Below are positions 46,830-49,001 of a stretch of DNA of 64,000 nucleotides, piece by piece; position 1 is the stretch's first letter, and each line of letters starts with the position of its first letter. Source of the DNA: a phage; sequence record PZ386980.1. One strand, 5' to 3'. Below the pieces are notes generated by a model. The model had not been told where the DNA came from. It saw only the letters and a list, made by a program, of their open reading frames with translations, and ran no database searches. Both the position numbers and the translations under genes were made by a program.

Positions 46830-47128
46830 CAACCTTGTCGGGGTTCCACCTGCTAAGGCAAGTGTTTGTACGAAACGCCGGGATTCGAACCCGGTTATCA
46901 AGCAGTTGACGCTACTCAATATTTTTAAAAGGCCATATCTCGACCATATCCGAACGTTCCGTCAAAAACGCTACTCGGCTTACGGCAAAGATATTTCCTC
47001 GAATCGATAATTCGGTGCGCCGTTTCTGCTGTGATATAAGGGGCATTAACAAAACATAAAGATTTATTAATGCCAGTCCTTAAACAGGGAACATCAGTCC
47101 GACGACTTACCGGTAGCGACCCGGTTTC
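46830..47128 (-). ncRNA. candidate stable small RNA region adjacent to tRNA cluster
   Basis: About 300 bp without ORF on the coding strand, contains tRNA-like T-arm (GGTTCGAATCC) and long hairpins; position matches where I recall T4 small stable RNAs. Confidence 0.3.
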
Positions 47129-47527
47129 TTAATATTCTTTTAAAGCATCAATTTGTTCACGGCGTTTACGCCATAAATCAATTGCTTCATAAGCAGATTC
47201 AGCATTTCGAATTAGCCGACATTTATGTAAAGACTTATGATTTTGATATTGTGTAGATAACGGAATTTTATCTAAAAGGTCTTTACGTTCAAAATATTCG
47301 TAACCATCTAAACCAAATGAACGATTTTTGAGAAATTGCCAATGACCAAATTCGTTTTCGACATAAACATAATCTGCATGCTGATAAAGCAAATTAATTA
47401 CACGTTCAGAAATAACAGTATCATTATGATTAAAATAGAATGTTAAATCATGAACTACTAAATAAACATTGCCTTTCATATTTTCCTCACTTATAATTGG
47501 TCGAGACAGAAGGATTCTAACCTTCAA
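47129..47527 (-). CDS. hypothetical protein
   Basis: 132-aa ORF between RNA region and tRNA-Arg. Confidence 0.5.
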   Translation of the reverse strand: MKVRILLSRPIISEENMKGNVYLVVHDLTFYFNHNDTVISERVINLLYQHADYVYVENEFGHWQFLKNRSFGLDGYEYFERKDLLDKIPLSTQYQNHKSLHKCRLIRNAESAYEAIDLWRKRREQIDALKEY

Positions 47528-47574
47528 CCTACGGATTAGAAGTCCGTTGCTCTATACAATTGAGCTATGCCTCG
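47498..47574 (-). tRNA. tRNA-Arg (anticodon UCU), CCA encoded
   Basis: Hand-folded cloverleaf: 7-bp acceptor stem, anticodon loop CUUCUAA, T-loop GGTTAGAATCC. Confidence 0.85.
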
Positions 47575-47578
47575 TATT

Positions 47579-47653
47579 TGGCGGACATGCATGGATTCGA
47601 ACCATGGACCAATTGATTAACAGTCAACTGCTCTACCACTGAGCTACACATCC
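47579..47653 (-). tRNA. tRNA-Asn (anticodon GUU), CCA encoded
   Basis: Hand-folded: acceptor GGATGTG/CATGTCC, D-arm GCTCAGTGGTAGAGC, anticodon loop CUGUUAA, T-loop TTCGAAT. Confidence 0.7.
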
Positions 47654-47657
47654 AAAT

Positions 47658-47744
47658 TGGTGGGGAGTGATGGAGTCGAACCACCCGAGTCGCAATGACA
47701 ATGAATTTACAGTCCACACCGCTACCTCTACGGGATAACTCCCC
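47658..47744 (-). tRNA. tRNA-Tyr (anticodon GUA), long variable arm, CCA encoded
   Basis: 87 nt; perfect acceptor GGGGAGT/ACTCCCC; anticodon loop CUGUAAA closed by a stem with two G-U pairs. Confidence 0.6.
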
Positions 47745-47756
47745 TAATTCATAATT

Positions 47757-47831
47757 TGGTGGCCCTGGGTGGAATTGAACCACCATCTGGCGATTATGAG
47801 TCGCTTGCTTGAACCTTCCAGCTACAGGGCC
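47757..47831 (-). tRNA. tRNA with CAU anticodon (Met or lysidine-modified Ile), CCA encoded
   Basis: Acceptor GGCCCTG/CAGGGCC, anticodon loop CUCAUAA, T-loop TTCAATT. Confidence 0.7.
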
Positions 47832-47832
47832 T

Positions 47833-47908
47833 TGGTGCTGATTGACGGAATCGAACCGCCGACCTTCTCATTACAAGTGAGTTGCTCTACCTACTGAGCT
47901 AAATCAGC
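47833..47908 (-). tRNA. tRNA-Thr (anticodon UGU), CCA encoded
   Basis: Acceptor GCTGATT/AATCAGC, anticodon loop CUUGUAA, T-loop TTCGATT. Confidence 0.8.
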
Positions 47909-47913
47909 AAAAC

Positions 47914-48003
47914 TGGCGGAGGTGATAGGATTCGAACCTATGAATCGCCGGAGCGACTGCCGGTTTTCAAGACCGGTGCATTCAACCACTCTGCCACACC
48001 TCC
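47914..48003 (-). tRNA. tRNA-Ser (anticodon UGA), long variable arm, CCA encoded
   Basis: 90 nt; acceptor GGAGGTG/CACCTCC, anticodon loop CUUGAAA, T-loop TTCGAAT. Confidence 0.85.
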
Positions 48004-48009
48004 AAATAT

Positions 48010-48660
48010 TTATATATTGTTAATTTGATTTAGAATTCTTTTTGCTTGAGTATGACTTACGCCAATATGCTTAGCATATTTAGATAATTCACCACGCTTA
48101 GAAAAATCATATAATTTAGAAATTTCTATTCTTCTTTTTCTTTCATCCGCAGAAACTTTTGCTTCGTTTGCTTTTGCTATTTTACGTTTAGCTTCTTGAG
48201 AATGAGTTTTACCAGCAAAGCCATTCTTCATTAATCCATTTGAAGACCATCCTTTTAATTTTCCGTTAGAATGTGCCTTTTTAACACCCAATGAAATTAA
48301 TTCGCGCTGCTGATCTGTCATAGGATAATTATTTATATGATCCCATCCACCTTCACCGCCAAGTTTTAAATTATACACATCTGGTCTATTTAAAAACTCT
48401 TCTGTAACAATATTTTTCTCGGCTTCAAGCATAGATTCTTTATCATCAAAATACTCTAATATTTCTTTAGAAAAATTTTCTATACCATATTTATCTTGGG
48501 CTCTTTTTAATAATTTACCAGAACCCATATATCCATCATCTAAATTTTCGGTAGAATGCACACCAATATAAATTTTATTATTAATTTTATTTGTTATTTT
48601 ATAAAGATAAAAATGCATATCAGTCCCTAATAAAGAACTGAGCGTCTCACGACGAGTCAT
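48010..48660 (-). CDS. segB: GIY-YIG homing endonuclease (SegB-like) embedded in tRNA cluster
   Basis: 216 aa; FYLYKITNKINNKIYIGVHS...GYMGSG GIY-YIG motif; basic C-terminal tail; ATG 5 nt downstream of tRNA-Gly. Confidence 0.75.
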   Translation of the reverse strand: MTRRETLSSLLGTDMHFYLYKITNKINNKIYIGVHSTENLDDGYMGSGKLLKRAQDKYGIENFSKEILEYFDDKESMLEAEKNIVTEEFLNRPDVYNLKLGGEGGWDHINNYPMTDQQRELISLGVKKAHSNGKLKGWSSNGLMKNGFAGKTHSQEAKRKIAKANEAKVSADERKRRIEISKLYDFSKRGELSKYAKHIGVSHTQAKRILNQINNI

Positions 48661-48664
48661 AAAT

Positions 48665-48738
48665 TGGAGCGGATAATGAGAATCGAACTCACATCATCAG
48701 ATTGGAAGTCTGAGGTAATACCATTATACGATATCCGC
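48665..48738 (-). tRNA. tRNA-Gly (anticodon UCC), CCA encoded
   Basis: Acceptor GCGGATA/TATCCGC, anticodon loop CUUCCAA, T-loop TTCGATT. Confidence 0.8.
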
Positions 48739-48743
48739 AAATT

Positions 48744-48830
48744 TGGTGCGAGAAGTGGGACTCGAACCCACAAGGAAATCATTCCGCAGCATTTTAAGTG
48801 CTGTGCCTTTACCAATTTGACCATTCTCGC
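48744..48830 (-). tRNA. tRNA-Leu (anticodon UAA), long variable arm, CCA encoded
   Basis: 87 nt; GCGAGAATGGTCAAATTGGTAAAGGCACAGCACTTAAAATGCTG..., as I recall T4 tRNA-Leu. Confidence 0.85.
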
Positions 48831-48831
48831 G

Positions 48832-48904
48832 CTGGGAATAAAGGACTCGAACCTTTGCATCCTGGAATCAAAATCCAGTGCCTTACCAACTTGGCTAATT
48901 CCCA
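48832..48904 (-). tRNA. tRNA-Gln (anticodon UUG), CCA not encoded
   Basis: Acceptor TGGGAAT/ATTCCCA, anticodon loop UUUUGAU, T-loop TTCGAGT. Confidence 0.75.
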
Positions 48905-49001
48905 ATTATTAACAAAGGCTCTCAAGCAAGAACCCTTGATGATAGAGGGTATTAATCAGTGCGGTATGAGTTAATAATAACAAATAATTCTTAAAGCATA
49001 T

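Follow-up and report, generated by a model that had tools for sequence, protein, structure and literature searches.

The window analysed here, a 64,000-nt stretch of phage DNA (sequence record PZ386980.1), carries a cluster of transfer RNA (tRNA) genes interrupted by a gene for a SegB-like GIY-YIG endonuclease. The cluster belongs to the T4-like phage RB51 (deposited as FJ839693/NC_012635), whose tRNA operon it forms, and it is highly probable that this operon was invaded after tRNA-Gly by a mosaic homing cassette of the SegB family. The operon itself is already known and annotated. Its 2.3-kb region matches RB51, RB68 and Ac3 (genus Tequatrovirus) at 100% identity, and since the GenBank records of these phages annotate nine tRNAs with the same anticodons as well as the SegB-like gene, labelled "truncated SegB-like protein" there, the arrangement is already in the public record. 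The RB68 record also annotates the stable RNAs rnaC and rnaD. What the present analysis adds is modest: a corrected start codon, the recognition that the gene is a mosaic with a DNA-binding half of Klebsiella-phage type, a shared insertion point 4 nt after a tRNA CCA, and the mutual exclusivity of the two cassette types.

An earlier note on this DNA had taken the arrangement to be other than the common state of T4-like genomes. That it is a minority state stands, as records with an endonuclease/tRNA-Ser junction of the window type number 57, against 439 records from E. coli phages with contiguous Gly-Pro-Ser (both counts include GenBank/RefSeq duplicates), but the identical arrangement is already annotated in RB51, RB68 and Ac3, which goes in part against the note. 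The window arrangement is thus a substantial, well-sampled minority state.

A mosaic endonuclease gene in the place of tRNA-Pro

ARAGORN finds exactly nine tRNA genes across the window, all on the minus strand (as are all features located below by window coordinates) and spanning 47498-48904. Their order is Gln(UUG), Leu(UAA), Gly(UCC), a gap, Ser(UGA), Thr(UGU), a CAU tRNA, Tyr(GUA), Asn(GUU) and Arg(UCU), in exact agreement with the order and anticodons that the earlier note had reached by hand-folding. No tRNA-Pro was found by ARAGORN in the 64 kb, again as the note had claimed, and the endonuclease cassette sits in the slot that tRNA-Pro occupies in T4 and T2. The T4 set given there, with Pro and without Tyr and Asn, agrees with the T4 gene order (Gln, Leu, Gly, Pro, Ser, Thr, Ile, segB, Arg, rnaD, rnaC). 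T2 has no endonuclease and carries Gln, Leu, Gly, Pro, Ser, an open reading frame (ORF), Met/Ile, Tyr, Asn, Arg and a 116-aa ORF.

The 660-nt gap between tRNA-Gly and tRNA-Ser holds an ORF that extends over 48010-48660 at its longest. Its description as a SegB-like GIY-YIG gene is borne out by Pfam (GIY-YIG, PF01541, 26.8 bits against a cut-off of 22.6) and by N-terminal residues near-identical to those of T4 SegB. The likeness to T4 covers only part of the gene. Codons from about 7 to 96, up to GGEGGWDHI, show 98-100% DNA identity to T4 segB, whereas the remainder of the gene, beginning near 48330 and including the stop codon, shares 77-90% DNA identity with a gene of the Klebsiella phage KP13MC5-5; identity of this C-terminal half to T4 segB is about 40%, which is the background level. 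Judged by these identities, the gene is a natural mosaic. A GIY-YIG catalytic domain of T4/T6 SegB type (aa 1-96, 48331-48618, assigned from DNA identity to T4 segB and from Pfam) is joined to a linker, NUMOD3 and a C-terminal three-helix, helix-turn-helix (HTH)-like module of Jiaodavirus type (aa 97-202 and stop, 48010-48330), and the leader is likewise of Klebsiella-phage type. The protein is not a strict ortholog of T4 SegB: high-identity alignment is confined to aa 1-96 and does not extend over the full length, and the gene lies between Gly and Ser rather than upstream of tRNA-Arg. It does have three features of GIY-YIG homing endonucleases, namely the catalytic domain, a separate C-terminal DNA-binding module and a presence/absence polymorphism; site-specific double-strand cleavage and preferential inheritance in mixed infection are known from T4 and T6 SegB (PMC2330249, PMC13096335).

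Insertion site, junctions and mutual exclusivity

The cassette fills exactly the Gly-to-Ser interval in which T4 and T2 carry tRNA-Pro. Junctions were read directly from sequence. In RB51, the Klebsiella phages Mineola and KP13, and the T6-type phage Pu-Krd-SF2 (gene order ... Tyr, segB, Arg), the cassette begins 4 nt past the CCA of the upstream tRNA, the left junction being CCAATTT followed by ATGACTCG or CCAAATT followed by GTGACTCG. At the right junction of RB51, homology to the Klebsiella gene stops at ...AATCAAATTAACA, 14 AT-rich bases follow, and then tRNA-Ser begins; tRNA-Pro is exactly missing. The T6-type cassette likewise replaces exactly tRNA-Asn. Among Klebsiella Jiaodaviruses, 121 records have adjacent Gly and Pro (GCTCCAAATTACTCCG) and about 20 have the cassette between them, a textbook pattern of empty versus occupied sites.

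T4 SegB recognises a 27-bp site (GGTTCRANTCC-N11-CCAR) that includes the T-arm motif GGTTCRANTCC, and often cuts immediately past CCAR (PMC2330249). Because the cassette insertion points coincide with this known cleavage position, comparison with the T4 enzyme suggests homing into inter-tRNA spacers. Association with tRNA genes is widespread among SegB homologs (PMC13096335). Six full-length homologs are more distant (about 50% identity). Five of them have a tRNA just upstream, which in four cases is tRNA-Pro(UGG); there the ORF starts at the CCA(A) end and its stop abuts the next tRNA in three of the four (L015, 1372-2097; L016, 1434-2103; L017, 1426-2115; L019, 1422-2091). The link with tRNA-Pro thus recurs in this subfamily, one member of which comes from Erwinia phage FBB1, and L015 has a leader of roughly 50 nt that contains the T4 late-promoter consensus TATAAATA.

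The RB51-type and T4/T6-type cassettes occur together in none of 196 phage records, a count to be read with the shared ancestry among these records in mind; a query that joined the two types of C-terminal half matched one place in each, and nowhere were both halves covered. RB51 should nevertheless be invadable by a T4-type segB, since the 3' 27 bp of its tRNA-Asn (GGTTCGAATCCATGCATGTCCGCCAAA) retain all five nucleotides on which the preference of T4 SegB for T2L tRNA-Asn reportedly depends. One possibility is that doubly occupied genomes are lost through recombination between the identical catalytic-domain repeats of roughly 290 bp. Other insertions are seen in the same operon: an HNH endonuclease gene lies at the position of tRNA-Gln, heading the cluster, in Shigella phage CM8 (L009), where it replaces Gln and where Tyr and Asn are unannotated, and in Pu-Krd-SF2 (L004). 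The operon as a whole is a general insertion hotspot, where the incoming element takes the place of one tRNA gene. KMB39 has the same arrangement as the window, and AR1 and RB18 have it with an additional tRNA-His between Asn and Arg.

The tRNA repertoire and codon demand

The presence of Tyr and Asn in RB51 is the segB-free state, as in T2, and not a gain; it is T4 that is derived. This follows from T2L, which lacks segB (as do RB1 and RB3; PMC2330249) and has Met-Tyr-Asn-Arg. The preferred cut site of T4 SegB lies in T2L tRNA-Asn (Brok-Volchanskaya 2008, PMC2330249), and homing of T4 SegB has been shown experimentally to convert the Met-Tyr-Asn-Arg region of T2L to the T4 form (PMC2330249).

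A different account would have the repertoire (Tyr and Asn present, Pro absent) arise mainly from adaptation to codon demand or to tRNA-cleaving defences, with the endonuclease an incidental passenger. Codon usage gives it some footing. When 93 ORFs of the window, chosen greedily, were set against 42 annotated genes of E. coli K-12, small samples that are indicative only, the codons read by the nine tRNAs, mainly A-ending codons and those for Tyr and Asn, were 1.5-8.2 times commoner in the AT-rich phage (AGA 8.2 times, AUA 4.8 times, AAU 3.3 times and UAU 2.6 times). Tyr residues number 47 versus 26 and Asn residues 59 versus 38 per 1000 codons in phage and E. coli, respectively, or 1.6-1.8 times the E. 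coli sample, and Pro is depleted (33 versus 48 per 1000), with CCA, enriched 1.44 times only, the least enriched target codon. The comparison of Asn, Tyr and Pro codons, which the earlier note had proposed as a check, thus came out as enrichment of Tyr and Asn and depletion of Pro. Moreover, T6 tRNA-Tyr counters the Septu defence, which cleaves host tRNA-Tyr (PMC13096335). However, the differences between the phages map exactly to cassette boundaries, Asn (and in T4 also Tyr) being missing at the T4/T6-type segB and Pro at the RB51-type gene, and T4 SegB homing replaces the Met-Tyr-Asn-Arg region of T2L in experiment (PMC2330249). T4 and RB51 are also close relatives with the same host species, so that their codon demand is unlikely to differ much. 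As the main cause, adaptation is therefore unlikely, though it is the best placed of the alternatives. The two views are compatible, and selection may decide only which losses are tolerated; as Pro and CCA are the least phage-enriched, loss of tRNA-Pro should cost the phage least.

Integrity of the endonuclease

The deposited label raises the question of whether the gene product is intact. Besides the GIY-YIG match, NUMOD3 is detected at 22.9 bits (cut-off 20.4) with the C-terminal half alone and at 20.1 bits, just below the cut-off, on the full protein; the HTH_10 signal in the C-terminal half is weak (E=0.021). The AlphaFold model has a mean pLDDT (predicted local distance difference test) score of 81, with the catalytic domain above 90, aa 157-201 at about 90 and low-confidence linkers. 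A fold search with the model pairs its N-terminal domain with the catalytic domain of I-TevI (1MK0/1LN0; probability 1.00) at about 25% identity. The full-length model had no significant match to any solved DNA-binding domain in that search, matches of the C-terminal domain being HTH/homeodomain-like and non-significant (E > 1), and a PDB sequence search with the full protein returned no match at E <= 1. Residues Y6, Y17, G19, E67 and N83 are invariant across 25 homologs. The ratio of nonsynonymous to synonymous substitution rates (dN/dS) against KP13 comes to 0.12 in the N-terminal and 0.30 in the C-terminal half, and by this measure both are under purifying selection. Taken together, the domains, the confident model, the dN/dS values and the invariant GIY-YIG residues argue for a functional protein.

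It could still be held that the endonuclease is a decayed, inactive remnant, the frozen relic of an old insertion that deleted tRNA-Pro, with nothing mobile today. The annotation does read "truncated", the protein has 202 aa against 221 aa in T4 SegB with the gap in the linker, and the 98-100% conservation among E. coli phages could reflect recent common descent rather than selection. Against this, KP13MC5-5 has an intact counterpart at 78% aa identity with the same short linker and the same length, which makes the short form a natural variant and not a truncation; neither half evolves as a relic would, given the dN/dS values, and both domains are modelled with high confidence. Further, Y17 and G19, which are required for the activity of T6 SegB (PMC13096335), are invariant along with other conserved GIY-YIG positions, and the cassette is present or absent from phage to phage in the manner of an active homing element. 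Decay to a relic is accordingly improbable, and the description "truncated SegB" was rejected.

Start codon, leader and expression

The earlier note had placed the endonuclease ATG 5 nt from tRNA-Gly. The first in-frame ATG (48660) in fact lies 4 nt past the encoded CCA of tRNA-Gly, and the sequence makes a different codon the most likely start, namely ATG 48618, which is 46 nt past tRNA-Gly and gives a protein of 202 aa. An AGGGA Shine-Dalgarno (48628-48624) stands 5 nt before ATG 48618, and no Shine-Dalgarno was found ahead of ATG 48660. The intervening 42 nt (48619-48660) would be an untranslated leader of the cassette, conserved as DNA. They are near-identical in Pu-Krd-SF2 (1 mismatch), where they follow tRNA-Tyr, and about 85% identical in Mineola and KP13MC5-5, where they follow tRNA-Gly; the T4 segB leader is unrelated. 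The Klebsiella counterpart must be non-coding because it is 43 nt long, has GTG at the start and contains an in-frame TGA, and the KP13MC5-5 ORF, intact at 202 aa, begins at the second ATG. The catalytic residues of T6 SegB are numbered Y17 and G19 in the YIG motif (PMC13096335). This numbering fits the 202-aa form, and together with the non-coding Klebsiella leader and the position of AGGGA it favours the start at 48618. A 216-aa protein starting at ATG 48660, with a start created by tRNA 3' processing, is very improbable and was rejected in favour of ATG 48618: although the longest ORF starts there and this length is annotated in AR1, RB18 and ECML-134 and forms a protein cluster (P0001), the leader is conserved as DNA where it cannot be translated, the only Shine-Dalgarno serves 48618, and both the T6 numbering and the annotation of RB51, RB68, CM8 and KMB39 fit 202 aa.

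The leader is predicted to fold into two hairpins, CGUC-GUGA-GACG (48654-48643) and a second (48641-48620) that pairs with the Shine-Dalgarno AGGGA; 13 of 13 predicted pairs are kept in four sequences. The unrelated T4 segB leader forms a stronger hairpin (-19.4 kcal/mol) that occludes the ribosome-binding site (RBS), as was proposed in the 2008 paper (PMC2330249). A derivation of the leader from the 5' half of a tRNA-Pro was considered and rejected. The sole match is a generic D-arm 8-mer (GCTCAGTT), 140 of 2000 shuffled leaders score equally well, and tRNA-Gln outscores tRNA-Pro.

In T4, segB lies within a 1.75-kb tRNA precursor, transcription of the cluster ends after species I RNA (PMC2330249), and the cluster is made as one precursor processed by host RNases, according to Broida and Abelson (1985) as cited in PMC2330249. 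In the window, a scan finds an intrinsic-terminator-like hairpin with a T run at 46795-46818, the likely end of the tRNA transcription unit. As same-strand tRNAs flank the endonuclease gene and no terminator occurs until past rnaC, the gene is very likely part of the tRNA precursor transcript, by analogy with T4 segB; the embedding proposed in the earlier note thus holds on the same footing.

Over the 100 nt that precede tRNA-Gln, the window is nearly identical to T4. A MotA-type middle promoter just upstream of tRNA-Gln (TTGCTTGA ... TAATAAT) was dropped, and no promoter assigned, because the -10 element abuts the 5' end of the tRNA and transcription would start inside it. A sigma-70 scan gave sites no commoner than in shuffled sequence (17 versus 14.3 +/- 3.9). 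In the cluster region the late-promoter consensus TATAAATA is present three times; the minus strand of the whole window has 8 copies. One of the three (48014-48007) overlaps the endonuclease stop 4 nt before tRNA-Ser, and its function as a promoter is doubtful because transcripts would begin inside tRNA-Ser. Another (48337-48330) lies exactly at the recombination breakpoint within the endonuclease gene, and the third (46788-46781) lies past the rnaC terminator, ahead of the ORF at 46267-46740.

Proposed explanation

Invasion of the operon by the mosaic cassette could have proceeded as follows. The tRNAs, the small ORF, rnaD and rnaC would be made as one precursor ending past rnaC, from which host RNases cut out the mature RNAs. 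A free-standing GIY-YIG homing gene would have inserted 4 nt past the tRNA-Gly CCA and now reaches up to tRNA-Ser, filling the slot of tRNA-Pro. Like T4 SegB, the enzyme would bind a tRNA gene and cut just past the 3' CCA(A), and in a mixed infection with a cassette-free phage, repair of the break would copy the cassette into the inter-tRNA spacer. The leader hairpin, pairing with the RBS, probably holds translation down. The tRNA-Pro would have been lost later, in the E. coli phage lineage, and Tyr and Asn would have been retained as in T2, T4 and T6 having no Asn (and T4 also no Tyr) where their own segB sits.

Several points weigh against this explanation or parts of it. The activity, target and mobility of the RB51-type enzyme are argued from analogy, and the RB51 transcript structure is carried over from T4. 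Compared with T4 SegB and Mineola, the RB51 linker lacks about 20 aa, and cleavage could be altered or weakened as a result. If the enzyme used the 27-bp site of T4 SegB, that site would stay intact beside the cassette, leaving self-protection unexplained. As Klebsiella phages keep tRNA-Pro beside the cassette, insertion alone does not explain the loss of Pro. Finally, the leader hairpin has three one-sided base changes and no compensatory pairs, and its stability is modest (z about -2).

A more far-reaching possibility, which we put forward tentatively and which seems to us somewhat less likely to be right than wrong, is natural retargeting of SegB, with the RB51-type enzyme active. Recombination at the conserved domain boundary GGEGGWDHI would have joined a catalytic domain of T4 type to a DNA-binding module found across genera, in Klebsiella phages too, moving homing from the Asn/Arg junction to the post-Gly spacer, and the two types would compete, exclude each other and erase different tRNAs (Pro versus Asn and Tyr). 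Were this true, the two enzymes, alike in catalytic domain but unlike in DNA-binding module, would form a natural pair for the study of target choice by GIY-YIG enzymes, and would help to explain why the tRNA sets of close phages differ, some tRNAs countering host tRNA-cleaving defences. As found, the cluster matters little, since RB51 is annotated and experiments have already established how SegB behaves in T-even tRNA clusters (2008, 2026). It is nonetheless a natural example of homing endonucleases shaping phage tRNA repertoires, the tRNA set tracking the cassette held, and of the shuffling of endonuclease domains between phages of E. coli and phages of Klebsiella.

Other features of the cluster

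The tRNA genes proper occupy 47498-48904, and the cluster does not begin at 46830 as the earlier note had it; 46795-47497 holds the 116-aa ORF, rnaD, rnaC and the terminator. With the Rfam tRNA model, eight of the nine tRNAs score 59-73 bits (gathering score 29); for the long-arm tRNA-Tyr the sole Rfam match is the related tRNA-Sec model, below threshold. Sub-threshold Rfam matches (sX4, plastid UTR (untranslated region) families, tRNA-Sec) all overlap with tRNA genes on one strand or the other and were set aside as tRNA-like noise. A 3' CCA is encoded in all of the tRNAs except tRNA-Gln (48831-48904, ARAGORN; Rfam 67.4 bits), which directly abuts tRNA-Leu (48744-48830, ARAGORN; 59.3 bits; 87/87 identical to T4). 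The tRNA-Gly (48665-48738, ARAGORN; 65.8 bits) is identical to T4 and T2 at 74/74 positions. Downstream of the cassette follow tRNA-Ser (47914-48003, ARAGORN; 63.7 bits), whose CCA is encoded in the window and not in T4, and tRNA-Thr (47833-47908, ARAGORN; 72.9 bits).

The CAU tRNA (47757-47831, ARAGORN) is annotated as tRNA-Ile in RB51 and RB18. It is identical to the T2 copy at 72/72 positions and to T4 tRNA-Ile at 51/67, and in E. coli every one of its best matches (81.6% over the full length) carries a tRNA-Ile annotation. It carries C4-G69 and C5-G68, which we take to be TilS determinants. By its sequence it is likely of the Ile2 type, that is, lysidine-modified and AUA-reading; the identical T2L gene was named tRNA-Met in the 2008 paper (PMC2330249).

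The tRNA-Tyr (47658-47744, ARAGORN), with its long variable arm, matches the annotated tRNA-Tyr of T2 at 84/84 positions and that of Pu-Krd-SF2 at 86/87. It is followed by tRNA-Asn (47579-47653, ARAGORN) and tRNA-Arg (47498-47574, ARAGORN; 71.1 bits). Three clearly different tRNA-Arg alleles exist in T4, T2 and RB51. The T-loop of this tRNA-Arg is unusual (GGTTAGAATCC, with A at the expected C56), and its D-loop, AATTGTATA, is without the usual GG; the two changes may represent compensation within tertiary pair 19-56. The T-loop change breaks the SegB core motif GGTTCRANTCC in tRNA-Arg, and the motif is broken in tRNA-Gly (AGTTCGATTCT) as well.

Beyond tRNA-Arg lies a 116-aa ORF of unknown function (47129-47479; RB51ORF141, phrog_3355, by RB51/RB68 annotation and a PHROG match), which is absent from T4 and 99% identical to the T2 ORF downstream of tRNA-Arg. 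The stable RNAs rnaD (species 2; 47013-47132) and rnaC (species 1; 46869-47007), both from the RB68 annotation, are identical to their T4 counterparts at 105/117 and 136/139 positions, respectively. As neither has an Rfam match at E <= 1, they appear to be without a curated Rfam family. A tRNA-like T-arm, CCGGGTTCGAATCCCGG, is present in rnaC and includes the SegB core motif. By comparison of the RB68/RB51 annotation with T4, the T-even position of the operon is kept, with 57B, an internal-protein gene and the trna.4-trna.2 ORFs upstream and, at the other end, rnaD, rnaC, the terminator and e.8. A 157-aa ORF of unknown function (phrog_2280, 46267-46740) is not at this position in T4, and the 34-bp imperfect direct repeat that flanks it (a note in the RB51 record) suggests another inserted element.

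Comparison with known systems

The closest characterised relative is T4 SegB. Its catalytic domain is 98-100% DNA-identical to that of the RB51 gene, both are free-standing genes between same-strand tRNAs of the T-even operon with a neighbouring tRNA missing, and an RBS-occluding leader hairpin is predicted in both. T4 segB, however, sits between Ile and Arg rather than between Gly and Ser, Tyr and Asn being the missing tRNAs in T4 and Pro in RB51. The leaders are unrelated, as are the sequences of the C-terminal halves, and the RB51 form is about 20 aa shorter. T4 SegB has been studied biochemically, whereas the RB51 variant is known here from sequence.

The T6-type SegB (Chihara et al. 2026, PMC13096335; Pu-Krd-SF2) shares with RB51 the same 42-nt leader, the same catalytic domain and a start 4 nt past a tRNA CCA, with the next tRNA replaced (Asn in the T6 type, Pro in RB51). 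It differs in having a C-terminal module of T4 type, that of RB51 being of Klebsiella-phage type. In T6 the gene is adjacent to tRNA-Tyr, which SegB can amplify so that the phage escapes Septu (PMC13096335), whereas the RB51 endonuclease is four genes away from tRNA-Tyr.

The Klebsiella Jiaodavirus endonucleases between Gly and Pro (CPT_Mineola_142 in Mineola, an unannotated ORF in KP13MC5-5) are full-length homologs with the same leader, the same C-terminal module and the same left junction 4 nt past the tRNA-Gly CCA. The KP13 type has 78% aa identity to the RB51 protein and the same 202 aa, and the Mineola type 60-67%. In the Klebsiella phages the insertion is clean, with tRNA-Pro kept, and the catalytic domain is only 52-85% DNA-identical to that of RB51.

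I-TevI, encoded in the T4 td intron, has the same modular layout of catalytic domain, flexible linker, NUMOD3 and C-terminal helical DNA-binding domain, but it is intron-encoded and has other targets, while the RB51 gene is free-standing. Finally, T2/T2L has in common with RB51 the tRNA-Tyr, the CAU tRNA, tRNA-Asn, the UCU tRNA-Arg and the 116-aa ORF after Arg. Unlike RB51, it retains tRNA-Pro, carries an ORF instead of tRNA-Thr, is free of an endonuclease and differs in its Asn and Arg alleles.

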